A stretch of DNA of 64,000 nt from Amphiscolops sp. MND2022. Its lineage: Eukaryota. Where the stretch lies: contig OZ076409.1 of NCBI GenBank assembly GCA_964187785.1, forward strand, positions 25,112,001 to 25,176,000, written 5' to 3'. This document shows positions 4,311 through 54,647 of the stretch, one piece after another. Made by a program: the position numbers and the translations under genes. Under the pieces are notes generated by a model, which saw nothing but the letters and a program-made list of their open reading frames with translations, did no database searches and had not been told where the DNA came from. How positions within the stretch are numbered: position 1 is the first letter of the stretch; the number at the start of each line of letters is the position of its first letter.

Positions 4311-4331
4311 CGGTTTTCTTCTCTTGTTCGT

Positions 4332-4349
4332 ACTTCTATGACTGCGCCA
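4332..4349 (-). promoter_or_regulatory. Primer-binding site (TGGCGCAGTC..., possibly tRNA-Ser)
   Basis: TGG directly follows the ...TATAACA LTR end on the minus strand. tRNA identity is inferred from memory of Ser tRNA 3' ends. Confidence 0.7.
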
Positions 4350-4538
4350 TGTTATAGACTCGATAAAAGGTTTGAAGTAGGATGCTCAAGTTAAGAATGT
4401 GTAAGTAATGTAACATACAAAGTATCACTGTATTCAACGTAAAGTTTGCATCAAAATGAATATAGTCTAGAGGGCAATGTAAGTTCATTGGCAGGTACCT
4501 AATTACTGTTGTCTAGACTATTCTCTCTTCACGGAACA
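4350..4538 (-). repeat. Putative 5' LTR (189 bp) of the Mag-like element
   Basis: TGTT...AACA termini and abuts the PBS. The outer boundary is inferred because the second LTR is not in the window. Confidence 0.6.
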
Positions 4539-5949
4539 TGTGTTCGGGGGTTCGAATCCTAAACTTGACTGCATGTTTTCCAATATAGACTCCAAAATTT
4601 CCGAGGAAAAACACCAAACTTTGATCAAAACCAAGAACTTGAAAAACAACAAAGGAGATAAAGGTGTGAATTGTTTGTTCGTACTCGACCAAAAATTGAT
4701 TAAATTAGAAGAAAATTTACGATTGATTTTGTTGATCATTTTTGATTGTGTTGATCAGTTCGCATGGGAGTGAATAGTTTCTTCCAAAAAAATGTCGTCA
4801 AACGATTGGATAAACATTGGAACCAAAAATGCGATAGCAAAGAGAGATTTTCTTCCAGCAAGAGTATGTCGATCCGAAACATGAAAGCTGAGAGAATTTT
4901 AGACACCAAAGAGATTAAGTCACGTCATTCATAAGCAACGCAGAAAGATTGTGTAATAACCAAATGTTTGGCCTAAATCCAACCGCAAATACTATATACA
5001 GCACTCTGAAGACACACTTCGCCGCACTGGCTCTGGACTTTGCGCCAAAACTTTGCACGCGTCGTGTCTCTGATTGCTTTTCAGCATGTTTCAAAACATT
5101 CTGGGGCCGCTTTGACCCAATGCTGATACCAGTGGGATAAAAGGGTCATAAACGAAAACTGGAAAAACGGAAAATCTGCACTCAATTTTTTAAAATTTTT
5201 TGGTCCCATTTTCTGGATTTCGGAGACATCATGTCAATATTCCGTGAAAAGGAGCCAAATGCTATGCAATATTGTCTGAAAATCCTATTCATGAGTTTTC
5301 TTTACCATACAATCAGCTGGTGCGTTTAGAATTTGCAGAAACTAAATGTGCCGAAATCGGCACATTGGTCAATTTAAGGTTAAAACAGTGTTCCGACGCA
5401 AGATTTTGAAACACTGTATTTACATTTCGCACATATTGGATCGAAATTATAAGAAGCTCTACTCAAAACTGAACATAAATGTTTTGATACGGACAAAAAC
5501 AATGGTGAAAAAACAAAATTCGAAATATAAAAACAAGTACTGGCCATGATGGGATCGGTATTGATTTTTTGAAGTAATCTTAACAAATATTAGAAAAATT
5601 TTAGTCAACGTTTTATTGTCTGTTCGGAAGAACGGAGAGTTCCGGAATGCATAAAAATTCAAAAACTATTCCATTTTTCGAAAAAAGAGATCGCTATTAC
5701 CCTAGAATGTATCGTCCGATTAGCTTTCTAATCTACCTCTGTCAGTAAGTGTTTCAAAAAATGTTCTCTAAACCTTCAGTGAGCTTTTTTTCAAAAAAAG
5801 CAAATTGTTGATTTCGCCCATGCCGTTTAGGATCTAAACGTCTTTAGATCTAAACGGTCATGCACTTTTTCTATTTCTATAGCATCTGAGTATATGAGAA
5901 CGCATATTGATAAACTCAGTGGCCAAGCTTGTAGCATTGATATGAAAAA

Positions 5950-6572
5950 GCTCTTGACTCTTTTGATCAAAATGATTTGCTTCAGAAACTTTATTCTTAT
6001 GGTCTTTTAGGACCAGTACGTTTTATGTGATGTGCATTCCAGAGATAGATTGCAGTACGTCTCTTGAGAGGAAAAAAGGATAACTTGTGTAAAACTTACA
6101 ACAACTGTACCCCAATTGTACTTTCTAGGACTTTTCTTGTTTTCAATCTATGTCAATGATTTACCCGAATATGCGGAAAATAACAAACAAACTGCATCGT
6201 TTGCTGATGAAACAACTCTATTGAAAAGATTGAACGGTAATGCTTCAAAATGAATTTTCGGCACGGAGGTCAACATTGTATACTGCTAATGAACCAAGAA
6301 ATATTGCAAAAAACTTCGTGTTAGTCTTTGGAACTTCATGTGGATAGTAAAATGGCATTCAGAGATTTTATCGTCTACGTAGTTAAGCAACTAAAAAAAT
6401 CAGTGCCCTTGTTGATAGTGTGAGACATCTTTACCCATCAAAATGCCTACTTCTGTTTACTAATTCAAATGCAGCATTGATGATTAGGGATGGATTACTA
6501 GTTTTTGGCAGTGCAGCCAAAAGCAAATCCAAAAATTTTGAAACAGTGAAGAATCCTGCGAGCAAATGTTTC
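5950..6572 (+). pseudogene. Decayed non-LTR (CR1/L2-like) RT fragment, copy 1
   Basis: Translatable motifs VPQLYFLGLFLFSIYVNDLP and FADET match the LINE RT pattern GVPQGSxLGPxLFxxYxNDL / FADD. Confidence 0.75.
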
Positions 6573-6573
6573 T

Positions 6574-6973
6574 AATCTATGTATTCGAATATTTGTTCCC
6601 ACCACATTTTGGGATTGGCTTTTGATAGGTCAGTTTCTCTATCCGATAAGATCGGGATCTTGTACTTGTTTCTTTCAGTCCTTTCGACTATTGTTTGGTT
6701 GACCGCCGTTGGGTCGGTTTCGTTGTTGTTGTTCGTATTTTCCATCGGTTTTCTTCTCTTGTTCGTACTTCTATGACTGCGCCATGTTATAGACTCGATA
6801 AAAGGTTTGAAGTAGGATGCTCAAGTTAAGAATGTGTAAGTAATGTAACATACAAAGTATCACTGTATTCAACGTAAAGTTTGCATCAAAATGAATATAG
6901 TCTAGAGGGCAATGTAAGTTCATTGGCAGGTACCTAATTACTGTTGTCTAGACTATTCTCTCTTCACGGAACA
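6574..6973 (-). mobile_element. Duplicated fragment of the Mag-like element (LTR, PBS, gag 5' end)
   Basis: Copy of 4139-4538 produced by the tandem duplication. Confidence 0.85.
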
Positions 6974-8384
6974 TGTGTTCGGGGGTTCGAATCCTAAACT
7001 TGACTGCATGTTTTCCAATATAGACTCCAAAATTTCCGAGGAAAAACACCAAACTTTGATCAAAACCAAGAACTTGAAAAACAACAAAGGAGATAAAGGT
7101 GTGAATTGTTTGTTCGTACTCGACCAAAAATTGATTAAATTAGAAGAAAATTTACGATTGATTTTGTTGATCATTTTTGATTGTGTTGATCAGTTCGCAT
7201 GGGAGTGAATAGTTTCTTCCAAAAAAATGTCGTCAAACGATTGGATAAACATTGGAACCAAAAATGCGATAGCAAAGAGAGATTTTCTTCCAGCAAGAGT
7301 ATGTCGATCCGAAACATGAAAGCTGAGAGAATTTTAGACACCAAAGAGATTAAGTCACGTCATTCATAAGCAACGCAGAAAGATTGTGTAATAACCAAAT
7401 GTTTGGCCTAAATCCAACCGCAAATACTATATACAGCACTCTGAAGACACACTTCGCCGCACTGGCTCTGGACTTTGCGCCAAAACTTTGCACGCGTCGT
7501 GTCTCTGATTGCTTTTCAGCATGTTTCAAAACATTCTGGGGCCGCTTTGACCCAATGTTGATACCAGTGGGATAAAAGGGTCATAAACGAAAACTGGAAA
7601 AACGGAAAATCTGCACTCAATTTTTTAAAATTTTTTGGTCCCATTTTCTGGATTTCGGAGACATCATGTCAATATTCCGTGAAAAGGAGCCAAATGCTAT
7701 GCAATATTGTCTGAAAATCCTATTCATGAGTTTTCTTTACCATACAATCAGCTGGTGCGTTTAGAATTTGCAGAAACTAAATGTGCCGAAATCGGCACAT
7801 TGGTCAATTTAAGGTTAAAACAGTGTTCCGACGCAAGATTTTGAAACACTGTATTTACATTTCGCACATATTGGATCGAAATTATAAGAAGCTCTACTCA
7901 AAACTGAACATAAATGTTTTGATACGGACAAAAACAATGGTGAAAAAACAAAATTCGAAATATAAAAACAAGTACTGGCCATGATGGGATCGGTATTGAT
8001 TTTTTGAAGTAATCTTAACAAATATTAGAAAAATTTTAGTCAACGTTTTATTGTCTGTTCGGAAGAACGGAGAGTTCCGGAATGCATAAAAATTCAAAAA
8101 CTATTCCATTTTTCGAAAAAAGAGATCGCTATTACCCTAGAATGTATCGTCCGATTAGCTTTCTAATCTACCTCTGTCAGTAAGTGTTTCAAAAAATGTT
8201 CTCTAAACCTTCAGTGAGCTTTTTTTCAAAAAAAGCAAATTGTTGATTTCGCCCATGCCGTTTAGGATCTAAACGTCTTTAGATCTAAACGGTCATGCAC
8301 TTTTTCTATTTCTATAGCATCTGAGTATATGAGAACGCATATTGATAAACTCAGTGGCCAAGCTTGTAGCATTGATATGAAAAA

Positions 8385-9660
8385 GCTCTTGACTCTTTTG
8401 ATCAAAATGATTTGCTTCAGAAACTTTATTCTTATGGTCTTTTAGGACCAGTACGTTTTATGTGATGTGCATTCCAGAGATAGATTGCAGTACGTCTCTT
8501 GAGAGGAAAAAAGGATAACTTGTGTAAAACTTACAACAACTGTACCCCAATTGTACTTTCTAGGACTTTTCTTGTTTTCAATCTATGTCAATGATTTACC
8601 CGAATATGCGGAAAATAACAAACAAACTGCATCGTTTGCTGATGAAACAACTCTATTGAAAAGATTGAACGGTAATGCTTCAAAATGAATTTTCGGCACG
8701 GAGGTCAACATTGTATACTGCTAATGAACCAAGAAATATTGCAAAAAACGTCGTGTTAGTCTTTGGAACTTCATGTGGATAGTAAAATGGCATTCAGAGA
8801 TTTTATCGTCTACGTAGTTAAGCAACTAAAAAAATCAGTGCCCTTGTTGATAGTGTGAGACATCTTTACCCATCAAAATGCCTACTTCTGTTTACTAATT
8901 CAAATGCAGCATTGATGATTAGGGATGGATTACTAGTTTTTGGCAGTGCAGCCAAAAGCAATTCCAAAAATTTTGAAACAGTGAAGAATCCTGCGAGCAA
9001 ATGTTTCCAAAAAAACTTTTTTAGTCTCAAAAAGAACTATCGAGAAACATATAAATTCAGAATTGTTTGTAATGGATGTTTTCACTGATGTTGTACAAAG
9101 TCTCGAATACAAGTTCCCGCTTGCTTTACTAATCAAAATTGATAACCCAGACACAAATGCTACTAGTGGCACAAAAAACTGCCGTCAATTGAATTTTGCA
9201 GAACCAAAATAAAATCAATGTCTATCGAAAATATCCTCTGAAAAGGCTACAACTTAATGAAGGAATTCCATCGAATACCGGGCGACTTGAACGTTTTATC
9301 AAAACAGCAAGTAAAAATTTGGCTCAAAACTATATCTGACATCTTGGTTGGTCAGACGACGCTGGAAACGTTTTTTCATCCGGAAGTATCTGTTTTGCGA
9401 AGTGATTCTTTCTCATCAATACGTGTTCAATATATTAATTTTCTACCTAATTTCTATCAAAACTTTCTACTTCGAAGTTATTACAAACATCCGTTTTATT
9501 TGTGACTTCAATATCTGAAAAAGTTTTCTGTAAACCCGTCTTCACTACTTTCTGGCTTCTATTTAGTTATCAGTTTAGGTTACTTAATTGATTCCACAGG
9601 GCAGAGGCTTGAAGAGCTGCAAAATCTCATTCTCTGTCTTTATTGAATACATTAAACTTG
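8385..9660 (+). pseudogene. Decayed non-LTR (CR1/L2-like) RT 3' fragment, copy 2 with tail
   Basis: Same RT motifs, followed by a degenerate C-terminal coding region and a 3' UTR-like segment. Boundaries are approximate. Confidence 0.7.
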
Positions 9661-16404: not shown

Positions 16405-17121
16405 CTATTGCGTCCTCATATTACTTGGATAAAATGTTACTATGAAAACCCGCAAATTTGTATAGAAATGTTTTAAAAATACTTGAAGAAGTAGTAACGC
16501 AGCATGAAAACTTCTCTGAACAGCTCTCAAACACTTAATAAATTTATCTTGCAACCTAAAAAAGCATGTAATGTAAGAACCATGACCCATGGTATCTCTT
16601 AAGTCACCTACAGATCTTGAATCTTTCTTTGCAATTTTTATTTTAGGCCCGGGTGCGCTTTCCCTGTTCTCCTGACTATTTGGGGACGAACTGGCCTCAG
16701 TGTCCCTGTGTCCCATAGAAGACATCGAGTTCGCAATATTCTGGATTTCTGGAATAACTCTTTCAGCTATAGCTGTTGTTATAGCCCTATTTATTTGGCT
16801 ATGCATTATTGACACCATAGATTCCATTTCTTGAGACAATCTAAGATTAAACTCACTTGAAAAGGCCTCAAAGGATTGCCTGACTTCATTTTGCCTCAAA
16901 GGTTCATTTTCATGTAAGTAATCTCTAAACTCATTTTCATGGTACACGTTTGTATCAGCGTCCCCGTGGGCCGACGACTGATCTATCGCTTCGGCTAGTT
17001 CTCTTTCAATGGGATTATTATTTTCATTTCCCAACATCACGTCTAGGTTATCATAGTCGGACAGCATGTCCATTTCTCTAGATCTCCTAGCTTTGGCCTT
17101 TTGACGTCTAGTAGAAGGCAT
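16405..17121 (-). CDS. 3'-LTR copy of the Gag N-terminus reading out into flanking DNA (238 aa chimeric ORF)
   Basis: The first 183 codons are identical to 30845-30297. The remainder is host flank. Expression is unknown. Confidence 0.4.
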   Translation of the reverse strand: MPSTRRQKAKARRSREMDMLSDYDNLDVMLGNENNNPIERELAEAIDQSSAHGDADTNVYHENEFRDYLHENEPLRQNEVRQSFEAFSSEFNLRLSQEMESMVSIMHSQINRAITTAIAERVIPEIQNIANSMSSMGHRDTEASSSPNSQENRESAPGPKIKIAKKDSRSVGDLRDTMGHGSYITCFFRLQDKFIKCLRAVQRSFHAALLLLQVFLKHFYTNLRVFIVTFYPSNMRTQ

Positions 17122-18100
17122 AAGAGATTATTGCAAGAGGCAAGAATTTAAATTAATATCTCGGGCTTGCAAAGTGAAAATGAACGGGTAGTTTTAATAA
17201 ACAATTCGCAACAGTAACGCAACAGTAACGTATCAAAGTATCATCAGGATAATTCTGTCCCCGGGACCACCAGTCCCGGTTATATATATTTGAATCTACA
17301 TGACACTCAATAAAATGATGATCATATTCTAAAAATAGCCATAAGGACTTTCTAAATATAGCCAAACGCTATAAATAGTAACTAGCATCATCGTGACGTT
17401 ATACACATCAAAGGGCCTTCCGACCGCTAGAGTAGGCGGGAAGCCTGTGAGTCCATAAGGACAAGCAATAATATAAAATAGAACACTGTACATGTTTTTC
17501 AACTCAACGCTTATTGCATGAATTATATGAATTGCACCCACAATACATATCTAATATCGTTCATGAGTCCCTTAGGGGCTAATAGTACATTTCATAAATA
17601 ATCAAAACACTAGTGATCATGTAGTCAGTACCAATAATTATACAGCGCTTTTAATTCAAAAGTGGACTCAGTGTCCAATGTACTAGAGCGGACTACCGCT
17701 TTGTTGACTGGCGGCATATAGCCATCCAGTCCTTTAATCTACTGATATAGTATAGCAGCAAATAAAGATAAATAATACTGCACTGTGATTGGCTGACGAG
17801 TTAATCGGACTCGCGGACCAAGGCGACAGGCGAGGAAACATTTGAACGCGTTTCCTTTACATGTACGCCTTGGTGTCCAATTAACTCACATACATATTAT
17901 TAGCGCCTGTACTATAATTTTACTTGTGATTACTTAGTATAAATCGTATAAAATAAAATATAAGATTTTACATGACTTTTAAGGCAACAAATATAGTTTT
18001 GCTTGTAAGACTTAATTCAGTGGGAGGGTGTTGGGCTGCGCCTTCTTGTAGTTGTGACTAATTGAATAGAGATTTCCATCACAGGCGGACGCCTGGGACA
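16572..18100 (-). repeat. 3' LTR
   Basis: Direct repeat of 30296-31824 with TG...CA ends, preceded by the PPT. Confidence 0.97.
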
Positions 18101-18851
18101 CTCCCCCTGGAATGAGCATAAAACATCCCACCTTCATTCCTTCTAGGAAGGCTAGCCTTCTTGCGTTGAATTGAAGGGCCGATTCTCCTTGGATGGTTGT
18201 TTTATGAAGGTAGTCGATGACTGCCTCGTCTTGAATCTGTTCGACTGATTTTCCGCAGACGAGGCAGTCTGTACATCCTGAGATGTAGGGGTTATCTGCG
18301 CCACTTGGTCCCCTGAAGTGTATTCCGTTGGCATGTTCTTGTTTGCTACTAGTAGTGGCTTCCGCTGCTATTCTCCAGTCGCCTGACGGATATTTGTCGA
18401 CGGCTGGGGGAGACATAGGCGTGTCGACCATAGGGATTAGCTGGCTACACAAATTGATTGGGTGGTCATTCCTTAGTCGCGGGTCTCTCGCAATCGGCCC
18501 TCTGCCCATTCCCAAGTCAAAATAGCCAGCATCGAACATAGGCCCAGGGACGTACGCTAGTCTGGGAGTCGCTGCGCGTGTCACTTCCTGCTTATTGGCA
18601 GAGGAAGGGATGGGAATTGCTTCTGATGTCGATGGAAGCTCCATCTGTCTCTCCACACATTGAGCCAGGAGGGCCATCTCATCGTCCTCAGACAGGCTTT
18701 CTAGGTCGTCAACAGATGCGCTGCTGACACATTCCATGTCGTCGTCCGATGATATGTATATTATTCCGTCTCCGGGCGCTGCCCCCTGAAAGTCCTCGGG
18801 GTAATATTGAGGAGACTCACAGTCGAAGTGACTTGACAAGAATTTATCCAT
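18012..18851 (-). CDS. Accessory sense ORF (about 279 aa from ATG MDKFLSS...), unknown function, overlapping the PPT and 3' LTR
   Basis: Open frame in GC-richer sequence with an acidic N-terminus and a CTDCLVC motif. It ends 89 nt inside the LTR. Confidence 0.75.
   Translation of the reverse strand: MDKFLSSHFDCESPQYYPEDFQGAAPGDGIIYISSDDDMECVSSASVDDLESLSEDDEMALLAQCVERQMELPSTSEAIPIPSSANKQEVTRAATPRLAYVPGPMFDAGYFDLGMGRGPIARDPRLRNDHPINLCSQLIPMVDTPMSPPAVDKYPSGDWRIAAEATTSSKQEHANGIHFRGPSGADNPYISGCTDCLVCGKSVEQIQDEAVIDYLHKTTIQGESALQFNARRLAFLEGMKVGCFMLIPGGVSQASACDGNLYSISHNYKKAQPNTLPLN
18101..18108 (-). promoter_or_regulatory. Polypurine tract (AGGGGGAG)
   Basis: Purine run immediately before the TG of the 3' LTR. 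Confidence 0.85.
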
Positions 18852-20134
18852 GATCAGTTTTTTAGCTATCTTGGACAATTGACTGAAAGGTTTTAAATCT
18901 TGAGTTTTGAGAAGCTGCTGATTTTCAAAAGTGAAACTGAAACAATGGCGGTTTCCCCTTCTGTCGACTTGCGGGAGTTTTCGTTTCAGTTTCCCGGGGT
19001 TTCTCCCTTCCTTGCTGACTAAATTTTCAATAACAAAATTCCTTCTTTCTAGAGTCTATTAACTAGCCGCTCAGTCTTCTTTGAAAATGCCGACCGAGGC
19101 TTTGTTGACTTACATTAACTCTATCAACACTTCCATATTAAGAGCGTCACTTTGAGTGTTTATTAACACTCATCTAGCACTTAAGGGTTTCAAGAGGATG
19201 AAGATATGGCAGACGGCTACGCCGTCTATCAGCAGTTTTGATCAACCAATAGGATTGCAGCATAACCCTCTCTGAATAAAAATGGCTCCCCAAGGCCGTA
19301 GATCCATATAAGGAATAATATAAATGACCTTGAAAATGAATAAAATCATGGTAAAATCATGAAATAATTTGTAAAATAACAAAGTTTCGAAATAAATGAA
19401 TGAATGTAGATATTGCTGGCAGACTCCATCCACATAATAATACGAATTGTAAATAACTAAATTTGACACCAAATTGTACAGCCACGAACTCCAATTTTGA
19501 CATCTTGTCACATTGCCAATTCACCTTTTAATTCTTTACTTTCAAATTCCTTCGAATTACTCTTCTTGTATTATCGTCCAGTATTTAACCATCTTTAGTC
19601 TTTAGTCTTTGAGTAGTATTTTCTTTGTATTTGTTTGAAGTTTCCATTTGTAATCTCTCTCCTTTACGTCTTTTGTGGATTTCTTGGGTCGTCCCAGGAC
19701 CATCGACACTGAGTCCCTTTCGGCAATTCCTGCCATATTCACTATTCTCGCCTTCTTCCGAAGAAGAATTTGCTCCCCCCAAGCGGCAACTATTGCACAG
19801 ACATTAAACAGATTCACTGACGCTTCCGCTGACAATTCCATCTGTCTCCAAATTCTAAGACAGCCAGTCAACTTGCCATCAGCAGTTTTGCACACAGGAC
19901 ACACTTCTACCAGAATCAGTCAGGTGAGTAGCAATTTAGGATTTTCGCTTCTAATCTTGATAATGAATTAATCTGAGGCTTGATCAGGGCTCTCGTTTCA
20001 TTCACGTACTTCCTGTCCCATAACTCAAGCATTCACTCGAGTTCAAAATATCTACTCCCGGAAGATTTTTAAACGCGGTAATGGACTCTTTTTCAGGAAG
20101 TTATCCGCCTGAGTTTATCTCTTTCCATTTAGAC

Positions 20135-23100
20135 ATGTCGTCAGAAGAGCAAAGTGAAGCTGTCCCTGCTACTACCACAGAACCGCAAATCGAAGAAGAG
20201 GTCTCGCAAAGCCATGAAAAGGCAACAGCTAGTCAGGCCATCTCAGGTCACGGGGACGTTGAGTCCGCACACATTGAGCTGCCAGGCGATAATCCAGCTA
20301 CGACCGTCCCAACGCCCAGTCCATCCACTGACGAAAGTATCTCTGCATATATCGAACGCCAGCTGCAAACTCTCGGTTGCCAGGGCAGTGGACTCGGCAT
20401 TTCCTTCCTGCCTCCTACTACATCTGCCATCGTAAACAAGTCGCTCCCAACTGCTGCTGAGAAGGTCTCTGAGTCGGACCCTATTCTACAGGTCACGGGT
20501 GAGACCAGCAATAAAGGGTCTGCTGAAGAATATGCCGATCCGATGACTGACGTCCACAGCGAGGCGGGTATTTCCGCTACCAAGGTGGATTATTTTCAAA
20601 CTGATACCAGCGACGCCGAAGAATTGCAGGACAGTTCAGGAGCAGAAACTCTTAAAGAATCCCCTTTCCTAATCGCCATGGAAAATTTGAGCGCCACCGG
20701 GTCAGAAGTTCCTAAAGAGGCTGGACTGACCTCCTCTGCAGGGTTGCCAGATGTCACGTCCCCAAAACTCCTTAGTCCCACACGGCCTTTGTCTGCATCT
20801 GCGCGTACTCTCATCAATCAGCATTTCACGGAGACTAATCCGAGTATCCTTCCAGTGGGCCATGCGACAGTAGCCTTCAACCAGGGGCAGGTGCACTCTA
20901 TTTTGCGTGCTGTGTCCACTGAGACTCTCACTTCTTGTTTTCATCAAATGAAGAACATCTTAGAGGAGGCAATTCGTGTGGGTCGTTCCCAAAGTACCCA
21001 TCAGGGTCCCGCCAAACAACGCATCAAGTGCTTCCGAAAGAAGTCCGATAGCCCTGAGTTAGAAGGTCAGGATAGTGACATTGGTACCGAGGGGTACACC
21101 AGTGGAGCCCTCAGTTCAGAAGATGAGTTTGTCATCAACTCCCAGAGAACCGGCAAGGAATTGAGTATCGTGCCTCCCCCAAGTCCTCCTGGCCAAGATT
21201 CTCCCTGCACTACTGATCCCACTATTAGCCACCAAGTCCCCAGTCCAGGATTCTGTTCCACGGACTATGAGCCGTTGGCTACCCTGACTGCTGATCAAGC
21301 TTCCGCCTCCAGTCCACCACGCAAGCGTCGTCGGGTTCCAGGACGAAGCGGCAAAATAATGAAGGAGGCATATTTCAAAGGAATTCAATGGACTCGGACC
21401 TTTGTCACTGGGCCGCTCGATCCTGAGCACAATAAACATAAGTTTTATTGTCAGATTTGTAAGGCCAATGTGTCAATTTTCTCAAAAGGCGCCCGAGAGA
21501 TTACCCGACATTTCCAGTGTGAGTCCCACTTTCGTAAGGATCAGCGCTGGAGATATGAGAATTTGAAGAAAAAGGACAGTGTCACTGGGCGAATCGTCCA
21601 TGAGGTCAGGGGAAAGAAAGGTCAAATCCTTACTCCCTTAGAACTAGAGAGGGAGAAACCCTTCTTCATGCAGGCCCCTTTAGTTGAGATGGGATGCAGT
21701 TATCCGTTCTACGAGGACCATATGGCTGGTTTGGGTTCCATTGCTGGGCAAGAGGAAATCAGACTGTGTGTACAGATCTCATTGGTCGCCCTCTTTGCTC
21801 CTCGCTGCGGAGATCTGCACGTCCTCGAGTCACTGTGGTCACAAATTTGAACTGTGACCAACCACCAGAGTCTGTTCTCCCCTTATAATTGGGGCTCCAC
21901 AACATTGACAGTAAGTATCAACTATTTTCAACCTCGAGGTCTTTCCAGACTATTATGGACGGGGTATATTTTCATCCATGCTAATTTGTTTCGGACGATC
22001 TTCCATCACATCTTCCTCTGTGGCATCTCTGACATCGCGTATCAGGTCAATGCCACAGGCCAGTACTCCTTGGAATTCGAGACGCAAGGTACTTATAGCT
22101 TCGTGTCGATCCGTTTCTGGAAAGGCGAGTCCCTCAATGTTGTCCGGCTGCTGCGCTATCGAACTGCCTCAGAGCCTGCTGCGAGCTTCTTGCTAGCCCT
22201 CTCTCGACTCTTGTCTGCAATATCTGCACAGCCACAAATTGTGAGTGTGTCTGGGTGTCCAGCAGAGCTGATCCCGCTTCTTGAGCGTTCCTGTTTCTTC
22301 CAGAAGGGGATTGAATATCCCTTCAGATTTGATGCTCTGTCCTTGCCGAGCATGATGCATGAACGTTGGGGCAGCGTGTTTGGATCCATCAGTTTCTTCT
22401 CCCAGTTGAAGTTTCTGATCACCTTCTTGGATGGCTGCAGTGGACAACCTTGGGCTGCCTTAATGCCGGAATTTGTCAGGGTATGGTCAATGTCTCACCG
22501 CCTGTAGGTCCAGTTGTAGGTTGATTCTAATTTTCATGTTGTTTGTAGGCTATGACAACTTGCCATTTGGATATTGCTGCAGTGCCAACAGGCAGAATTA
22601 GGCATCCACAAGTAGAAATTTGTCATAGAGGGTTCACAGGTGTTATATGTACCCTCCAGGACAATTGAGCATTCTGTATTTCAGAAGAGCTTCGAGAGTC
22701 AATTCGCACAACGAAGGGACAGTGGCTTCTATACCTTCCGCGAGTTCCACACCTTCATCAGAAAGTTGGCAGCACGGGCACTACTTCCTAGACATGTGCC
22801 AGAGATTTTAGACTGGAAAGCCCTAGACGACATGCAAGGACAGAACTGGCGACAACTGTCCAACCGAGATTTCCTGACTCGCTTAAAGCTGAAAGAGAAT
22901 CTTGATGGGGCTTGTCTCGCTCGTGTCAAGAAGATTCATAGTGAAAAACAGCTGACACCTGAGGAGACAAAAATTGCAGTTGAAGCCATCCGGGACGATT
23001 TCGCTACCAAAGCTCGCAATTATCTCGTCTACCTTCTGAAAGTCTTCTTGTCGGATATCAGTCTGAATGCAGGTATTGTCAGAGGTTTGGGTTGTTTCGA

Positions 23101-23830
23101 CCCAATGGCCCTCTTGTGTCTTCCTCTTGATCAAGCCACCTATTGCTTTTCAGCATTGTATCGATCCTTCAGTCTGCGAGGATGGTTGGAAAATTCCCCA
23201 GCGGCTGATGTCCGCGATGAGTACATTGACTTTTTAGAGTACTTCCGCCAGTTGAATTCCGGGGCCAAAGATACCCCTGAGGTCTTTACTGACATGGTAG
23301 CCACCCTGATAGAAATGCCTGGGCTGAAGATGCGTAAACATTTGTTCCACATCTTCCAATTGAGTTGTTTGTGCCTTACAACTAAGTTGCCAGAGCTCCC
23401 AGCTGTCAAATTCCCCGGAGTTGATTGTAGTGAACCCCGAAGTCGGCTGTTCGAAGTCATCATGCCCGCACAGTCATACCTCGCTAATGTTGCTAGTGCA
23501 GTGTCAGTGTGTACTACAGAAGCTTCTTTGGGTACTTTCAAAGATCTGGAGTTTCGGTTTTGTAGCGGGAATGTCTCAGGGGACCCCTGGTCTCATGTAG
23601 ATAGTTTCAACAGGGCCAACATTCACAAAACTTTGATTGCTGTCTACAAGGCTTTGGGCAGCAGTGTCCCACCTGACGCTGAGTGCGCTTCAAATTCTTC
23701 ATCCAAAGAAGGGAGGAAGCAACGCAAACAGTCTCCCAATAAGGGCAAGAAAGTTTGTTTCAAGGTCGCTAGCGGATCTGAGGCCACTGAGTCTGGTGAT
23801 GTAAACGCTCCCGGTACCTCTAAATCCTAA
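20135..23830 (+). CDS. Antisense multi-exon accessory gene (about 1156 aa; exons about 20135-21910, 21995-22480, 22549-22611, 22685-23830), C2H2/BED-like zinc finger; this copy has an in-frame TGA
   Basis: Three long ORFs joined by short phase-0 introns (GTAAGT, GTATGG and GTAGAA donors; CTAAT branch motifs in the first two). Candidate 5' UTR intron 19924-20132, AATAAA at about 24009. TGA at 21848-21850, and the first acceptor reads CGG. Confidence 0.75.
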
Positions 23831-24067
23831 ATGTACAAAGAGTACATTTGTTTCTAGACTCTGTAATTGTTGTAAACTGCTTTGTATTTATTTCTTTTTT
23901 CTTTGCTTTATTTGCGTGGCCCTGTATTATTGGCCACTGAGTCTGTTTTGTTGTATATATATGTTTCAAGTAAAAAGTAAAAGATTAGTCAGAGTAGTCC
24001 CAAGTAAAAATAAATGTCCCCATGGACTAGTAGAGAAATAAAGGGACTGGTAATTCAAGTTTTCTGG

Positions 24068-27000
24068 CTAGTATCTGTATTCATCAGTAAAGTTGGGGGT
24101 TGGGTTAGGTCGAAGATTGTATTTCCCTCCTCTAGGGCTCGAATTTTCATTTGAATTTCCTCGTTCCGATATTCCGGGCACGGTAATATCTGCGCCTGTG
24201 TTTGAAACGTTTTCCGTATCTTTTAAATCATTAGTGACGTCATTTTCATTCTCAGTCCCCTTTGGCGTTTCATTCGGCGGGGACGGTTCGTCACTGCTAT
24301 TGTTCTCTCTCGGGGATATTTCGTTCTCGGTAACGTCATATTCTGTCGTGCGCTCGTTGTAACTTTCATTGCTTGCGCGTTCGTTCTCGGTGATGTAATT
24401 GTCCGCATTACTGCACTCGGCGTCCGTCGGCCGGCGTGTGGCCACGTCGGTCCAATTTTCCTTTCTCGGTTCAAATAAGTCGTACTCAAAATCTACTTCC
24501 CATGAGATAGTGTACAAGTCGTCTTGCGGTATTACTATCTCATTATCAGGTTGTAGTTTTTCGCCATCATATTTGTCCTCTAAGGGGGCGTTCGGTACGA
24601 ATTTCTTTAGTCTAATGCGATGAAGTATTTGGGTTTTATTTGTATTTAGACGACGGACAATATAATTGTCGTTGGACAGTACTTTTTGAATGACGAATGG
24701 TCCAATCCACCTGTATTCCTTGAATGGAATTTTTAACCCCTGACTGTCCGCTTTAGGTTGTAGAACAAAACAATAATCCTTTTCTTTAAGCGGGGCAGCT
24801 TTTGCCTTTCGGTCGTAATAGTCCTTATATTTCAAATAAGACTGCATTATGTTCTTTTTTGTTTGATCTATGAGGATTTGTGTCCTCTGCTGTACTTCCT
24901 CCGCAAATTCTGTAGTTGGCAGAAAATTTTTATTGGGGTTATTTCCCAATTTGTGGTCTAGGACGTTATAGGGAATCCGGCCGTGGAAGACTTTACTCGG
25001 TTCACATCCAATACTAGAGTGGTATGTGGTATTGTAGTTGAGTACTGCTAATGGTAAATATTTATGCCATTGGCGTCGATATTCCCCTGAGGCCATTTTC
25101 AAATTTGTTTTGAGTGAGGCATGGGTCCTTTCGAGTTTGCCAATTGTTTGCGGGTGCTTTGTAGTAGCACATTTGAGTGTTATACCTAAAATTTGAGTTA
25201 TCTCAGCTATGATGGTCGATGTAAATGCGGACCCTTTGTCTGTGATGAGAGTTGTTGGTAAATATGAATGTTTCGTCATGATATCAATTATCACCTTGGC
25301 TACATTCGTGGCTGTTGCCTCAATTAGCGGGTAGGCGAATAAGTATCTTGAGAATACATCTATAGCCGTCATCACCGTCTGGTATCCGCCACTAGTCGGT
25401 AAGTTTGGTAATAAGTCTATCTGCATGGCATCTTCTGGACCAAGGTCCCATTCGGGCAAGTTTAACAATTCTGGTGTAATTGTATTATTTGGGACTCTTT
25501 TGTCTCTAGCGCACGTTTCGCAGCCTTCTACCCATTTTTTAACGTATTTTGCTATGCCAGGGTAGTAGTATTTTTGGCGGATCTCTTGCAGCATTTTAGA
25601 GATGCCTGGATGTCGATGTGCCGTGCCATGTATTGCTTGCAGTAGTTCTTTCAACAGGTGCTTTGGCAGTAAGATTTGGTGGTATTTGATTTGTCCCGTT
25701 TCGTCGTAATACTGTCGGGTCACTATTTCGTCCTTGAGGACTATACGGTCTAAGTTATTTAAATAATGTTTATACCGAATGTCCTGCTGAAGGATTTCTT
25801 CAGAGTATTCTTCATTTTGAATTTTTGCTTTTAAATGAAGCAAAATCGGATCTTTGGGTTGTTCTAGTAGTATTTGGTTGGTTCTGCGTAGTTTCTGAGT
25901 GAAATTGGTAATTTCATCTACTACATTTTCAGATATGGTATCGATTTGGATGACGGTCTCATCGACCTTGAGTCCTGCTTTTGATTGTTTTTTCCTTTCC
26001 CAAATTTGTTCTTCTGTTTCATTGTCTTCTTCTGTAAAGAACACTTGTTCTTCTTCAGACACGCCGGCTGATTGGACATTAACATCAATAGGTTGGGTTT
26101 CAACGTCCGCTCGGATTTTTAGGACTAACTTTTCAGTGGGGTCCATTTCCATGCGGGACAGGTAGTCCGCCGCTGTGTTGTTTTTGCCTGGAATGTGCGC
26201 TATAGTGAAATTGAACTGAATAACAAAGTCACACGCGTTCCATAATGGCGGCGGTATTATTTTAGTCTGGAAAAACCTTGTGACTGATTTGTTGTCTGTG
26301 AGGATAATCACCGGCTTAGGCGTGCCCCAGAATATATGTCCAAATTCTTTGAAGGCGTAATAGATGGCTAAAAATTCCTTCGCATAAATTGACATTTTAA
26401 GCTGTGAAGGAGTAAAAGTTTTTGAACCATATGCAATAGGCGCATAGGATTTCTTGACTGAGGTAAATTTCTGATTTGGATCATCTTCAGTAAGTATAGC
26501 ATATCCGGCTGCTGTGAAGCTAGCATCTGTCATCAGGACTAGCTGTCGATTTGGCAAGGGCTGCCTCAGGGCTAGCTGGGTGCATCTGTCCAAATCTCTA
26601 TTGATCTCGTTGAATTGTTCAATTAATTCCGTTGTGACTAAGACCTTTTCGTCCTTCTTTAATAGTTGAAAGAAAGGGACTAATTTTTCTGATAACCTCG
26701 GTATGTAGTTTCTATAATAATTAAGGAATCCGAGGTAACGTTGTAAGGCTTTTTTGGATTTTGGGAATTTCGTTTTTTCTAGGAATTGTATGACTCGTTC
26801 CTTCTGGGGCTTGACACCCTCAGGGGTGATTGTCCTCCCTAAGAAATCAATCTCAGTTGCTCCGAAGTGGCATTTATGCATCGTTAATTTCAATCCAGCC
26901 TCTCGGATGCATTCGAAAGTTGCTCTGAGATTTTTAATGAGATGCTCAGCGTCGTTGGCCGCGATGCCAATATCATCCACGTATTGGGCACATTGATCGA

Positions 27001-29155
27001 CTTTGATGACACGGTCCAAATATTCTCTCATAAAACTGGAGAATGCCGATAAGGCTCTACTGAGACCTTGGGCCAATCTTCGATATGCAAACGTTCGGCT
27101 GGCAAATTTGAAGGCCAACATCTCTATAGACCGTTGGTCCGCCATTTGAAGGCAATGGTACGCTTGCGAACAGTCAAGCTTACAGAAAAGTTTCCTTCCG
27201 GCCATATGTTGTGCAGCGTCCGTTAAGGTGCTGACTGGATGGTTGTTGTTGATATAGTCGTCAGAAATGAGATTGTTGATCTTCCGGAGGTCTACCAGTA
27301 GTCGCAGTTTCCCATTAGGCTTCTTTTGTGCAAAGATAGGGCTAGCGTACTTTGAGAATGGTAATGTTGTTATAATACCATATTTGTGTAGTGACGCTAA
27401 TTCGACCAATATGTCCTCTTTTAAATTGACCGGAGTTGGTAAGCTCTGGCTGTAGGCAGGAGAGTCGTCCTTCGGGGTCAATTTGACCGTGAACTCCTCA
27501 TTCATACCAATGTCAAACCTATGACGGGCAAATATGTCGTGAAATTCGACTAATAGCGCTTCTATCTGTTTGATTTCATGCTGTTGTAGCATTGAGTCCT
27601 TCCAGTCAAAGTTACTGAGGAATTTTTGTCGAGATTCTTCATTGTCTTGTGGATTTAGTTTTTCTGCTTCTTGCAGGTTTCGTAATTCTCTAAGAATTCT
27701 CTTTTGTATTGGAGTATGGGACTCTTCGTCCCCTGGGTTTTCGGGTGTTGGAAACCAGTATTGTTCGTGTTGGTCATTGTTCCTGTTGGCTTTGAGAAGG
27801 CTGCTGATATAATAAATAGCATCTTCTTCATTTTCATTTAGTAGGTGCCAAGTGGACACTGGGTCTATTGGCCTAAAATGTTTCATTTGCTCTGGAGTCA
27901 TCACTGAGAAATTCGCTATGTGCATCCCTTTTTTGAGTTTAAAGGGCTGGTCTGTGAAGTTGTTGACATGGATCCTCGTAGTCCCTTCGTCCAGTGTGAC
28001 TATGGCGGCACAAAATGTCATATCATTTTCTTCGTTTAGAAGGTCACTGGGTTGTAAGATTCCAGTGACAGCGTTTTCTGCATAAATTTGAGATTGGATA
28101 GGGATGATTGTACGTCCATTTGGCGGAATCGTTATATCCTCGGGGTTGAGGATAGGTTCCATTACATTGGAGTACTTATGGTCAGCTGTTTTCAATTGCA
28201 TCGAGAAGAAGGAAAAGTTAAGTATGCCTTGGCGCATATCTAGGACTGTGTGGTTTCTTTGTAAGAACATAAGTCCAATTATGGGGCTGGATAATTTTTC
28301 CATCACTATGAAGATTTCGTGGAACTCTATGTCCCCTACTTCGAACTTCAGTTCTACTGTACTCTTCGGAGTTTCCAGGTCTCCATTTGCGACCATAATT
28401 TGGAATGACGGGGCAGGACCCTCTTTCACTATTGATTGGGGTGCAAGTAGCCGTATTTTCCTAAGGTCAGCTTCTGGTATCGCGCTGGAGTGGGCCCCAG
28501 TGTCTATGAGACCATCTAATGTTAGTTCTCCAAAGTCCATTGGGAAATATAGCATCCGCCTTTTGATTTTGAGGCCAAGGTTGGTAGAGAGGGGAACGTA
28601 TGACGGTTCTCCTTGTTTTTCCACTAGGATGTGCAAGAAGGCTGTTTCGTCTAAAAGGCTGTCGGGGCCTTGAAAGTCTTCTTGCTCTTGAGTTTCCTCT
28701 ATTTCTTCTAAGACTGCTTCGGAATTTGGCTGCCAAAGTTCAATGAGGGCCCTGGATAGTTTGTTGTCCACTATCGGGGGATCGTCCTCGTCGTCCGTTG
28801 GTGGATATTCGTCTTGTCTAAACTGGAGTTTTTGTCTGTCGTAGAGTTCGTCGTCCCAATAAGGGTCTTTGCCGTAATCAGGATCGGGGTATTGAGGGTG
28901 ATAATCTTCGATCAAGGGTAAGGGACGGAATTGAGTCTCGAAGTCTTTAGTATAGTCGATTTCGTAAAATCGGTCTGGGCGATCATTATGTACTATTTTA
29001 TATGTTCGGATATATGCTTGTTCCATCTGTTGCTGCCAGACAACAGTGGGAATTCCTTTTGTATCCTTGATTGTTTGGCTGTATTTGATTATTGGAGGAT
29101 CTGAAATGACATATTGTCGAACCGACATATAGTCATGTATTTGGAGTCGTGGCAA
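24068..29155 (-). CDS. pol: Pol polyprotein: protease, dUTPase-like domain, reverse transcriptase, RNase H, integrase
   Basis: Uninterrupted 1695-codon frame with LIDTGA, QYVDD (26972-26983), MTDAS/KEFLAI/LTDN, integrase H..H..CETC, QIDL/ITDKG/LERT, and a WIGPF module. Confidence 0.98.
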   Translation of the reverse strand: MPRLQIHDYMSVRQYVISDPPIIKYSQTIKDTKGIPTVVWQQQMEQAYIRTYKIVHNDRPDRFYEIDYTKDFETQFRPLPLIEDYHPQYPDPDYGKDPYWDDELYDRQKLQFRQDEYPPTDDEDDPPIVDNKLSRALIELWQPNSEAVLEEIEETQEQEDFQGPDSLLDETAFLHILVEKQGEPSYVPLSTNLGLKIKRRMLYFPMDFGELTLDGLIDTGAHSSAIPEADLRKIRLLAPQSIVKEGPAPSFQIMVANGDLETPKSTVELKFEVGDIEFHEIFIVMEKLSSPIIGLMFLQRNHTVLDMRQGILNFSFFSMQLKTADHKYSNVMEPILNPEDITIPPNGRTIIPIQSQIYAENAVTGILQPSDLLNEENDMTFCAAIVTLDEGTTRIHVNNFTDQPFKLKKGMHIANFSVMTPEQMKHFRPIDPVSTWHLLNENEEDAIYYISSLLKANRNNDQHEQYWFPTPENPGDEESHTPIQKRILRELRNLQEAEKLNPQDNEESRQKFLSNFDWKDSMLQQHEIKQIEALLVEFHDIFARHRFDIGMNEEFTVKLTPKDDSPAYSQSLPTPVNLKEDILVELASLHKYGIITTLPFSKYASPIFAQKKPNGKLRLLVDLRKINNLISDDYINNNHPVSTLTDAAQHMAGRKLFCKLDCSQAYHCLQMADQRSIEMLAFKFASRTFAYRRLAQGLSRALSAFSSFMREYLDRVIKVDQCAQYVDDIGIAANDAEHLIKNLRATFECIREAGLKLTMHKCHFGATEIDFLGRTITPEGVKPQKERVIQFLEKTKFPKSKKALQRYLGFLNYYRNYIPRLSEKLVPFFQLLKKDEKVLVTTELIEQFNEINRDLDRCTQLALRQPLPNRQLVLMTDASFTAAGYAILTEDDPNQKFTSVKKSYAPIAYGSKTFTPSQLKMSIYAKEFLAIYYAFKEFGHIFWGTPKPVIILTDNKSVTRFFQTKIIPPPLWNACDFVIQFNFTIAHIPGKNNTAADYLSRMEMDPTEKLVLKIRADVETQPIDVNVQSAGVSEEEQVFFTEEDNETEEQIWERKKQSKAGLKVDETVIQIDTISENVVDEITNFTQKLRRTNQILLEQPKDPILLHLKAKIQNEEYSEEILQQDIRYKHYLNNLDRIVLKDEIVTRQYYDETGQIKYHQILLPKHLLKELLQAIHGTAHRHPGISKMLQEIRQKYYYPGIAKYVKKWVEGCETCARDKRVPNNTITPELLNLPEWDLGPEDAMQIDLLPNLPTSGGYQTVMTAIDVFSRYLFAYPLIEATATNVAKVIIDIMTKHSYLPTTLITDKGSAFTSTIIAEITQILGITLKCATTKHPQTIGKLERTHASLKTNLKMASGEYRRQWHKYLPLAVLNYNTTYHSSIGCEPSKVFHGRIPYNVLDHKLGNNPNKNFLPTTEFAEEVQQRTQILIDQTKKNIMQSYLKYKDYYDRKAKAAPLKEKDYCFVLQPKADSQGLKIPFKEYRWIGPFVIQKVLSNDNYIVRRLNTNKTQILHRIRLKKFVPNAPLEDKYDGEKLQPDNEIVIPQDDLYTISWEVDFEYDLFEPRKENWTDVATRRPTDAECSNADNYITENERASNESYNERTTEYDVTENEISPRENNSSDEPSPPNETPKGTENENDVTNDLKDTENVSNTGADITVPGISERGNSNENSSPRGGKYNLRPNPTPNFTDEYRY

Positions 29156-29157
29156 AA

Positions 29158-30845
29158 TTAGTTTTTTGAATCAGATTTTTTAGTATTGGGTTGGCTTGAA
29201 GTAGCCGTTTCTGGGTCATTTGCTTTTTTAGGCTTTCCTTCGGAGTCTATAGCATTTCGGTCATTTTGTTCTGTCTGCATCCTTTTGGGTCGCAGGTGGG
29301 CGCCGGCGCCTTGCCAGCACCTTTCGGTTGGGTGGTTCTTTTTGCCACATGTGTCACACGGTGGGTAAGTTGGACGCTGAGGTTTTTTACCGTCTTTGTC
29401 CTCCGTTTCCTTTTTCTTCTTGAGTTTCGGGCAGTTTTTGTAATAGTGACCCGTCGCCTTGCAGTATGAGCATTGGGCGTCTTTATTTGTGTTGATGCCA
29501 TTGGACAGTAAATTGTTATGGCTCGTGGACGCCGAGGCCATAGTGGCCATTGGCAGATCATCTGACTCTTCTAATGCATTGAGTTCCAGTTCTCTTTCAA
29601 GATGAGCAACTATTTCTTCATACGTCCCGTTCTCCAAACGGGCCATGTTGACAGATCGTTTCAGTTTTGGGGGTAATTTCGCGTATAACAAGCTGTCAAT
29701 CATGCTTTTAGCGTTTTCCCCAAATGCTTTTTCTGCACCTTGGTTCAGTTCTTCCAAGAAGTCTGGTAGTTTCATTGTACTTGGATCGAAGTTCAATCGG
29801 TGCCATTTATGCTTTGCCGTTGCTTGTGATTCCGGTTTGACATATTTCCTCCGGAATATGACCAGTACGTCCTCGAGAGTTTGACGGTTGATTGAGTTTA
29901 TGTTCCTGAATGTCTGTAATGCTCCCTTTCGTAGCAAAGAATGAAAGTGATTAATTTTCATTTGTTCTGTCATTGTGGGCTGCATTTTGATCATCGTATG
30001 GAACAAGTCCTCAAAGAGCTCAAATTTTTCACTTTTCCCATCAAATGTCATCGGGGTTGTTTGTACGGGTCTGATGGTCATAGATTGCGGTTTGTTTTGC
30101 AAATTGACCAATACGTCGGCTAGTCTATTAAACGGGTTCTGAGGAGGTTCAGGAGCCTCTGGGGCCGGGGCTGGCAGAGTCGTGTCCAGAGAGATATTGT
30201 GTGTGGATTGTTGTCTCTCTAGGTTCGGGATTGAGTGGATTCGTCCGGTCAGAAATTCGGAATTTGCGGTTGGGTGTCGGTAGCTCCTGTCACCATGTAA
30301 GAACCATGACCCATGGTATCTCTTAAGTCACCTACAGATCTTGAATCTTTCTTTGCAATTTTTATTTTAGGCCCGGGTGCGCTTTCCCTGTTCTCCTGAC
30401 TATTTGGGGACGAACTGGCCTCAGTGTCCCTGTGTCCCATAGAAGACATCGAGTTCGCAATATTCTGGATTTCTGGAATAACTCTTTCAGCTATAGCTGT
30501 TGTTATAGCCCTATTTATTTGGCTATGCATTATTGACACCATAGATTCCATTTCTTGAGACAATCTAAGATTAAACTCACTTGAAAAGGCCTCAAAGGAT
30601 TGCCTGACTTCATTTTGCCTCAAAGGTTCATTTTCATGTAAGTAATCTCTAAACTCATTTTCATGGTACACGTTTGTATCAGCGTCCCCGTGGGCCGACG
30701 ACTGATCTATCGCTTCGGCTAGTTCTCTTTCAATGGGATTATTATTTTCATTTCCCAACATCACGTCTAGGTTATCATAGTCGGACAGCATGTCCATTTC
30801 TCTAGATCTCCTAGCTTTGGCCTTTTGACGTCTAGTAGAAGGCAT
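29158..30845 (-). CDS. gag: Gag (about 560 aa), interrupted by one frameshift near 30258
   Basis: Capsid-like region (TFDGKSEKFELFE) and two CCHC knuckles (CSYCKATGHYYKNC, CDTCGKKNHPTERC). The ORFs 30249-30845 and 29158-30111 join if one base is restored (QIP-EFLTGRIH...). Confidence 0.85.
29161..29167 (-). promoter_or_regulatory. -1 programmed ribosomal frameshift slippery site A_AAA_AAC
   Basis: Heptamer in the gag frame directly before the TAA. The -1 frame is pol, and a downstream hairpin is present. Confidence 0.8.
30278..30295 (-). promoter_or_regulatory. Primer-binding site (TGGTGACAGGAG..., tRNA-Leu-like)
   Basis: TGG immediately after the LTR's terminal CA. tRNA identity is inferred. 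Confidence 0.8.
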
Positions 30846-31824
30846 AAGAGATTATTGCAAGAGGCAAGAATTTAAATTAATATCTCGGGCTTGCAAAGTG
30901 AAAATGAACGGGTAGTTTTAATAAACAATTCGCAACAGTAACGCAACAGTAACGTATCAAAGTATCATCAGTATAATTCTGTCCCCGGGACCACCAGTCC
31001 CGGTTATATATATTTGAATCTACATGACACTCAATAAAATGATGATCATATTCTAAAAATAGCCATAAGGACTTTCTAAATATAGCCAAACGCTATAAAT
31101 AGTAACTAGCATCATCGTGACGTTATACACATCAAAGGGCCTTCCGACCGCTAGAGTAGGCGGGAAGCCTGTGAGTCCATAAGGACAAGCAATAATATAA
31201 AATAGAACACTGTACATGTTTTTCAACTCAACGCTTATCGCATGAATTATATGAATTGCACCCACAATACATATCTAATATCGTTCATGAGTCCCTTAGG
31301 GGCTAATAGTACATTTCATAAATAATCAAAACACTAGTGATCATGTAGTCAGTACCAATAATTATACAGCGCTTTTAATTCAAAAGTGGACTCAGTGTCC
31401 AATGTACTAGAGCGGACTACCGCTTTGTTGACTGGCGGCATATAGCCATCCAGTCCTTTAATCTACTGATATAGTATAGCAGCAAATAAAGATAAATAAT
31501 ACTGCACTGTGATTGGCTGACGAGTTAATCGGACTCGCGGACCAAGGCGACAGGCGAGGAAACATTTGAACGCGTTTCCTTTACCTGTACGCCTTGGTGT
31601 CCAATTAACTCACATACATATTATTAGCGCCTGTACTATAATTTTACTTGTGATTACTTAGTATAAATCGTATAAAATAAAATATAAGATTTTACATGAC
31701 TTTTAAGGCAACAAATATAGTTTTGCTTGTAAGACTTAATTCAGTGGGAGGGTGTTGGGCTGCGCCTTCTTGTAGTTGTGACTAATTGAATAGAGATTTC
31801 CATCACAGGCGGACGCCTGGGACA
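30296..31824 (-). repeat. 5' LTR
   Basis: Direct repeat of 16572-18100. Confidence 0.97.
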
Positions 31825-53820: not shown

Positions 53821-54647
53821 GAAGGACGCACAGATATAAAAAAACGAGTAAGCTCTGGAAAACGGGTAGAATGGATTCAATGTCTGGGCACTTCCGTGAC
53901 CTCCGACTAAACTGCCCTCACTCTCTTGGAAAGAGCCGTGGTACACAACCGTTTGGCTGTCTGAGTATATCCGAGATAGCTTCTTGTATTTTTTTTAGAT
54001 CGTTGCCTTCTCCGCTTAGATACATGTCGAATTTTATGTTCAAGCCACTTTTCGTTCCACGATGACTAATATAGTAGCATGTGATTTACAACTGGAGTAC
54101 AATTTATCACTGATTTTTACAAGCTTTCGATTCTGACCTTACGTCGTTGTGGCACTGACCATAATCAGGTGGTTTTTCGTGTATGTGTAATTCGTTGCTA
54201 CTGCGCCGGATTTTTTCCAGAAAACACTTCGTGGCCAATTGGTTACACTGGATCATCAAACGCACAATATGAGTATTCAGTGTGTGGATTGACCCAAACA
54301 CAATTGAACTTAAATCAATAACTTTTTTCATTTAACTATGGATAGTGTTATTTTTGTTTTTCTTTCTCAGCCCGTTTCCGAAGTGTATTCGAAAGCTGAT
54401 TTCTCAAAGTGATTTGTATTCACATTCGCTGCCATTGTAGATCTAGTTGTATAACTTTACTTTTTGATTTTTACTAAAAGACAGATTGGTAGCTACATTG
54501 CATTCACGGGAGATTTGTCACTATTTTCAGTCTCCATTTTAGCAGGCAGCAGTAAATAGTTTACAGGTTATGTTTTTTCGACTGTAGTTATTTAGTCTTT
54601 CCTTCTCACCAGACAATGAAGCTGAGGCTAGGAGTACTGATATTTTT

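Follow-up and report, generated by a model that had tools for sequence, protein, structure and literature searches.

Coding within U3 is described for HIV-1 nef and for sag/rem of MMTV, and the tas/bet genes of foamy viruses are described as using an internal promoter (PMC12789967), as is env of the Oikopleura elements Tor3b and Tor4b (PMC4402516). Among LTR retrotransposons, extra open reading frames (ORFs) are known, mostly without a function. In plant and fungal gypsy elements such as Athila, Bagy2, Grande, RIRE2, Retand (TRP28) and Boty they are reported between pol and the 3′ LTR, in sense or antisense orientation (PMC7264820, PMC11963269). The bdelloid elements Juno, Vesta and TelKA are described with a dUTPase between protease and reverse transcriptase (RT) and with an ORF3 of env, GDSL, DEDDy, coiled-coil or transmembrane (TM) type (PMC5408684). 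Coding from the polypurine tract (PPT) into U3 has been described for retroviruses; here, a large and old protein family crosses the PPT in a Ty3/gypsy element, and selection at the protein level can be measured on the bases with which the LTR opens. In the literature searched, mainly main texts of open-access papers, neither this family nor a gypsy ORF across the PPT was found to be described.

The window, the whole 64-kb stretch of DNA that was analyzed, contains on its minus strand an element with two TG...CA LTRs, a target-site duplication, a PBS, a PPT and the pol domains of Ty3/gypsy in order (Table 1). This domain order, together with Ty3 as the closest solved relative (Ty3 Gag-Pol is the best PDB match of pol, E=6.5e-46), assigns the element to Ty3/gypsy. 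Since the LTRs differ at only 3 positions, begin with TG, end with CA and are flanked by the 5-bp duplication TTACA (31829-31825 and 16571-16567), the insertion is recent and full-length. The dUTPase-like domain scores just below the Pfam cut-off of 22 (21.9 bits, E=1.6e-4). No tRNA genes were found in the 64-kb window. The gag start lies 550 nt inside the LTR, and a gag frame (30845-30249) runs across the PBS. A first-pass annotation had proposed that gag and the accessory ORF embed both priming sites in coding frames; gag does cross the PBS, but in this copy the crossing frame stops soon past it, and the capsid/zinc-knuckle part occupies another, overlapping frame (30327-29158, minus). Gag and pol overlap at A AAA AAC (29158-29170, minus), just upstream of the gag stop, which we take to be a heptamer of the typical -1 ribosomal frameshift type. 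The copy of the gag start in the 3′ LTR produces a spurious 238-aa ORF (17121-16405) that continues into flanking DNA. Elsewhere in the window lie a second, different gypsy gag-pol frame of 1076 aa (1080-4310, minus), adjoined by an exact tandem duplication of 2437 bp (99.75%; 4136-9007), and, at 51245-57367, degenerate repeats of ~185-194 bp with a 3.4-3.6-kb duplication of 75-85% identity.

Table 1. Features of the Ty3/gypsy element and of ORF2, in window coordinates.
Feature	Position	Strand	Description
Ty3/gypsy element	16572-31824	minus	15.3 kb; LTR pair and target-site duplication
5′ LTR	30296..31824	-	1529 bp; 3 mismatches against the 3′ LTR
gag motif	17171..17184 (also at 30908)	-	in the LTR, 62 nt before the gag ATG
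gag	29158..30845	-	two overlapping frames in the window copy; start inside the 5′ LTR
PBS-like sequence	30283..30295	-	TGG start immediately adjoining the 5′ LTR; lies within the gag frames
pol	24068..29128	-	protease, dUTPase-like, RT, RNase H, integrase, in that order (Pfam)
dUTPase-like domain	28138-27898	-	pol residues 329-410, between protease and RT
Antisense gene	20081..23830	+	conserved C2H2/BED-like finger, probably spliced; between pol and ORF2
Opposite-strand motif	18985..18995	+	~40 nt from the ORF2 signal, faces the antisense gene; candidate divergent promoter
Candidate ORF2 mRNA 5′-end signal	18915..18944	-	initiator-like TCAKTT tract, then CAGCAG
ORF2, sense accessory ORF	18012..18851	-	279 aa, intact in the window copy; ATG at 18851, stop ends at 18012; same sense as gag/pol
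SIM-type motif	18738..18764	-	IIYISSDDD (residues 30-38); hydrophobic core followed by serines and an acidic run
C-terminal module	18081..18464	-	residues 130-257: H130/C135, T/S-P-x-S-P-P, H178, CxxC 196-199, hairpin 203-240, C257
Polypurine tract (PPT)	18101..18108	-	purine run of only 8 nt (18108-18101); read within ORF2 codons 248-251
3′ LTR	16572..18100	-	1529 bp, TG...CA; initial 89 nt are the end of ORF2

The sense ORF of about 279 aa noted at first pass (ORF2) was borne out on the minus strand. The plus strand over this region contains many stops, and none of 2000 base shuffles of the surrounding 3-kb region yielded an ATG ORF of at least 279 aa. Codons 248-251 read CCA GGG GGA GTG (PGGV), so the PPT is indeed read as codons, and the 3′ LTR begins (18100) with the second base of codon 251, the T of its TG. 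From there the frame continues for 28 codons and a stop, placing the stop 89 nt into the LTR, as originally claimed. Besides the 5′ LTR copy of the ORF2 tail, no second piece of ORF2 was found in the window.

A word-based search with ORF2 gave 80 relatives, 29-99% identical, among 458 candidates, and a profile search of 50%-identity representatives gave 538 at E≤0.001 and 274 at 1e-10. At least 15 clusters are of 20 members or larger and total 1091 members, fragments included; their representatives are 253-285 aa long and share 29-89% mutual identity, and high-copy lineages at just 29-35% identity retain frames of 253-285 aa. ORF2 is full-length in 76 and incomplete in 53 of the 129 members listed from nine clusters (with individual clusters ranging between 3 of 9 and 14 of 15). 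Incomplete members are expected because copies decay after insertion; intactness is highly informative between lineages and barely so within young clusters. For some relatives the contig is 1-4 kb long, suggesting an origin in other samples and perhaps in other hosts. Viral contigs contained no ORF2 relative, and metagenome contigs contained a single one, L001, a contig of 1275 nt that ends inside the ORF.

Selection at the DNA level was assessed from one sequence pair, the window and L001. Over 248 aligned codons, positions 1, 2 and 3 are identical at 50, 64 and 33%, and 55 of the 95 identical residues use a different codon. Within U3 the corresponding identities are 64, 76 and 44%, with a different codon at 7 of 14 identical residues. 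This codon-position pattern and the synonymous codon changes argue for protein-level as well as DNA-level constraint in U3. At the level of sequence comparison, these data show ORF2 to be a genuine protein gene under purifying selection, its U3 part included, with the DNA evidence coming from this single pair. ORF2 had been called an accessory gene, and a gene of that kind should be kept in most lineages and copies and be under purifying selection: the lineages retain the frame that leads across the PPT into U3 instead of losing it at random, and the one DNA pair indicates purifying selection.

Conservation is highest where ORF2 enters the LTR. In the 90-row alignment A2, residues 251-260, the first ten LTR codons, form the best-conserved block of the protein (0.90 over the 40 long rows). 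V-S or L-S occupies residues 251-252 in 85 of 90 rows, which permits the TG-TC start of an LTR, and the stop lies 28-36 residues past this motif in 75 of the 80 rows having it. The two residues before the LTR-start codon form a pair encodable by purines only in 67 of 89 rows, versus 6.6% of other adjacent pairs, and residue 249 alternates between Gly (44) and Arg (21), the pattern that a purine constraint would give. From these conserved residues we infer that the relatives also cross a PPT; judged by the alignment, the overlap of ORF2 with the PPT and the beginning of the LTR characterizes the family and is doubly constrained. Residues 249-250 are not encodable by purines alone in 22 of 89 rows (PPA, PTG, PSG and others), namely P0165, P0080, P0163, P0235, P0164 and 17 other rows of A2. 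In these lineages the plus-strand priming site may be atypical or lie elsewhere.

The N-terminal 75 residues of ORF2 contain 19 acidic and 2 basic residues; the pI of the protein is 4.5. The acidic tract YISSDDD reported here at first pass is present, but it belongs to a longer conserved SIM-type motif. The SIM consensus is described as a (V/I/L)(V/I/L)x(V/I/L) core followed by serine and acidic residues; ORF2 IIYISSDDD fits it and resembles the listed motifs IIVLSDSD of Daxx and IVISDS of ICP0/IE2 (PMC3174244). The motif is present in all 24 rows of the alignment A1. In A2, where the 50 shorter rows were excluded and 40 rows with a long N-terminus remained, a stricter pattern matched 31, versus a mean of 0.04 and a maximum of 2 in shuffles; it fails in 9 of the 40, and the distant P0184, P0186 and P0189 carry only a degenerate version. 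These counts speak to conservation and not to function, and the shuffle control overstates significance, because the patterns were written after the alignments had been seen and the rows are related by descent. The motif nonetheless forms a conserved island, scoring 0.74 at residues 31-40 against 0.36-0.56 for the remaining blocks within residues 1-110. ORF2 has the sequence features of a SIM-containing protein (core, serine/acidic run, conservation, disordered region), and SUMO binding is predicted. By eye, no clear basic nuclear-localisation signal was seen in ORF2.

Four cysteines are conserved in the columns of A2: C135 (59/67), C196 (83/89), C199 (84/90) and C257 (88/89). The CTDCLVC motif of the first-pass annotation is upheld in its CxxC (C196, C199), but its first cysteine, C193, is found in just 25 of 88 rows. 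Also conserved are H130, T/S-P-x-S-P-P at 144-149, H178 (64/83) and a short helix at residues 55-71. The Cys/His module probably holds zinc at a putative site. In the AlphaFold2 models, confidence was restricted to the CxxC and to the helical hairpin 203-240, with helices at 203-217 and 225-240, in agreement with the helical C-terminus claimed earlier; the models are otherwise poor (pTM 0.30 for the whole protein, 0.38 for residues 120-279) and do not show a zinc site. Profile and structure searches, the check suggested at first pass, returned no known family or fold from Pfam, PDB sequences or fold libraries, the last queried with low-confidence models. Pfam gave no family for ORF2 at E≤1, and ESM Atlas gave nothing usable for the whole protein or for residues 125-279. 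The best hits of the fold searches with these models (Z 5.1 and 5.6) were generic helical hairpins, and Foldseek against viral and PDB libraries found nothing at E≤0.001, a result that, from low-confidence models, establishes neither a new fold nor a difference. Candidates tried and rejected were a lone phosphatase stretch from PDB-sequence profiles (E=0.04-3) and, in Pfam, two chance hits among the 24 rows of relatives and two sub-cutoff matches among 11 distant ones.

The final gene of a 15-kb retroelement requires its own mRNA. The candidate 5′-end signal lies 89 nt from the ORF2 ATG, with a leader free of ATG, and its TCAKTT resembles what we take to be the initiator consensus. The pattern TTCAKTTTCMC has four sites in the 64 kb: before gag in both LTRs, before ORF2, and facing the antisense gene. 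The number expected is 0.41, for a pattern that was derived from these same sites. At no more than 1 mismatch, the gag 14-mer recurs solely before ORF2 (13 of 14 bases). The 43-nt upstream tract is conserved in L001, with a score reached by 1 of 300 shuffles, and L001 has a similar counterpart of the back-to-back motif. The conserved CAGCAG, which follows a T-rich tract, might instead serve as an acceptor for splicing or trans-splicing, and the frame of ORF2 is open for 68 codons upstream of its ATG; a separate 5′ end for ORF2 would be implied under the promoter and acceptor readings alike.

The first part of the antisense gene has 195 relatives and belongs to no named family. Among 13 aligned relatives (32-98% identical) similarity stops at one conserved donor-like point, so the gene is probably spliced; the apparent conserved donor lies near 21910. 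The window copy has an in-frame stop at 21848-21850, and the frame of the nearest relative, P0351, continues. Further donor- and acceptor-like sequences, near 19924 and 20130, point to additional exons upstream, and the search found no long forms of the antisense protein. Two overlapping 105-codon open frames (19605-19919, minus, and 19654-19968, plus), one with a CxxC, lie between ORF2 and the antisense gene and are possibly exons or a decayed third gene. The ORF2 and antisense proteins are not related (relatedness probability 0.4%). Their sharing of contigs is indicated indirectly: in the nearest ORF2 cluster, 6 of 15 listed contigs match the nearest antisense cluster in size, versus at most 1 in control pairs (81 pairs), and overall 21 size-matched contigs were counted over 90 pairs of ORF2 and antisense clusters versus 4 over 81 control pairs.

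Taken together, a dUTPase-bearing Ty3/gypsy clade has in ORF2 a non-structural accessory gene, to whose first description we add the conserved SIM-type motif, the four conserved cysteines and a gag-like 5′-end motif back to back with that of the antisense gene. Our tentative preference, to which we give slightly less than an even chance, is that ORF2 acts as a separately expressed nuclear regulator, anti-silencing or trans-activating. Such a mechanism would start from a protein gene under purifying selection in which the PPT and the LTR start double as codons, as the comparisons above show. ORF2 would then, quite probably, be translated from its own short mRNA. This mRNA would start ~90 nt upstream, from an internal signal that ORF2 and the antisense gene have in common in a back-to-back arrangement, and would end at the 3′ LTR. 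In a third step, which we consider somewhat probable, the disordered acidic N-terminus would bind SUMO through a SIM tunable by phosphorylation, while the Cys/His-helical module, probably zinc-bound, would bind a partner or nucleic acid. Acting in the nucleus, ORF2 would maintain transcription of the element, either through trans-activation of the LTR or by competing with or disarming silencing that depends on SUMO. In Drosophila, piRNA-guided silencing of transposons is reported to require SUMO and a SUMO ligase (10.1101/533091); a transposon would have reason to carry a SUMO binder given this requirement, which may not be the route of the host here.

The same conservation data would apply if ORF2 were a SUMO-binding or Cys/His protein that acts after transcription, as a particle or pre-integration cofactor in nuclear entry, target-site choice or cDNA protection. 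The element already has one cDNA-protecting domain, the dUTPase-like one, and SIMs are general tethers. Against these points, nothing links ORF2 to Gag or integrase, and the gag-like 5′-end motif with a head-to-head finger-domain partner suits a regulatory cassette better; we regard a cofactor as unlikely. Acidic disordered regions often contain SIM-like strings, which are short, and ORF2 might be an accessory protein in which such a string is incidental and which works as an acidic activator or adaptor with another host target. Acidic residues with a short helix typify acidic activation domains, and the 19 acidic against 2 basic residues of the first 75, the conserved helix at 55-71 and the degeneration of the motif in distant lineages are consistent with this. 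However, the motif stands out as a conserved island with the exact core-serine-acid order of SIMs, and we find an incidental string decidedly unlikely.

That ORF2 serves cell-to-cell spread as an env-like or membrane protein appears very improbable. ORF2 does occupy the position described for env, sense and 3′ of pol (PMC7264820), and has one mildly hydrophobic stretch (233-251), but it is an acidic, largely disordered protein of 279 aa. It has no hydrophobic leader, its peak 19-residue hydropathy is 1.44 (0.86-1.55 across the 24 rows of A1), neither a signal peptide nor a TM anchor is apparent by hydropathy, and Pfam shows no env family, in line with the original view that ORF2 is not env-like. 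That the frame is no gene at all, held open by chance or by DNA constraint on the PPT and LTR end, is scarcely credible and already largely refuted: the best-conserved residues do fall at an LTR start constrained as DNA, many copies are truncated and the G/R swap at residue 249 looks purine-driven, but third positions are the most divergent, U3 included, conserved blocks extend up to 220 codons 5′ of the PPT, lineages at 29-35% identity still have open frames, and no shuffle yielded such an ORF.

The regulator reading can be extended to both genes. A divergent internal promoter would serve two genes: the antisense one, spliced, would encode a finger protein able to recognise the DNA of the element, and the sense one, locked into the PPT/LTR end, a SUMO binder that disarms SUMO-dependent silencing. 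We hold this extension to be doubtful; if true, the retrotransposon would encode its own counter-defence against chromatin silencing and would have arrived independently, and without env, at a genome plan like that of complex retroviruses. No retrotransposon-encoded antagonist of SUMO-dependent silencing was found in the literature searched. Should ORF2 bind SUMO and raise expression of the element, it would be a direct candidate for the answer of a high-copy retrotransposon family to SUMO-dependent silencing, and the SIM-type motif makes its function cheaply testable.

The layout of ORF2 had been likened to lentiviral nef and foamy-virus bel. The parallel holds for layout, with coding in U3 as in nef and MMTV sag, but it is positional only, as no homology was found in Pfam, PDB sequences or fold searches with low-confidence models. 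Like lentiviral nef and MMTV sag/rem, ORF2 is a sense 3′ accessory frame that runs into U3 across the position of the PPT; unlike them, it resides in an env-less Ty3/gypsy element, and only 89 nt of U3 are coding. Nef has an N-terminal Met-Gly myristoylation site, whereas a Met-Gly start occurs in none of 24 ORF2 rows; neither Nef nor Tas-Bet homology appeared in Pfam, PDB sequences or, for low-confidence models, fold libraries. Furthermore, nef is made by double splicing, and for ORF2 an internal start is the better guess. In this respect ORF2 is closer to foamy-virus tas/bet and Tor env, being a 3′ gene with a candidate start signal downstream of pol. Its signal differs from theirs in being divergent, facing an antisense gene, and is known as a sequence motif only, with no homology found; the Tor product, unlike ORF2, is a membrane Env. 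With the extra ORFs of plant and fungal gypsy elements, ORF2 shares conservation and a position between pol and the 3′ LTR; unlike in those elements, a sense gene and a spliced antisense gene occur together here, and ORF2 lacks a TM segment and crosses the PPT. The position of the dUTPase and a non-env third ORF recall the bdelloid elements, although in Pfam ORF2 matches none of the ORF3 types described for them. As in HSV-1 ICP0 and HCMV IE2, whose motifs are listed in PMC3174244, a SIM-type motif occurs in the putative regulator of a genetic parasite. No RING family was found in Pfam for the window ORF2 and 34 relatives, and since only four scattered cysteines are conserved as well, ORF2 is not a ligase of the ICP0/RNF4 type. 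In role, and without kinship, ORF2 would resemble the regulatory accessory proteins of complex retroviruses.
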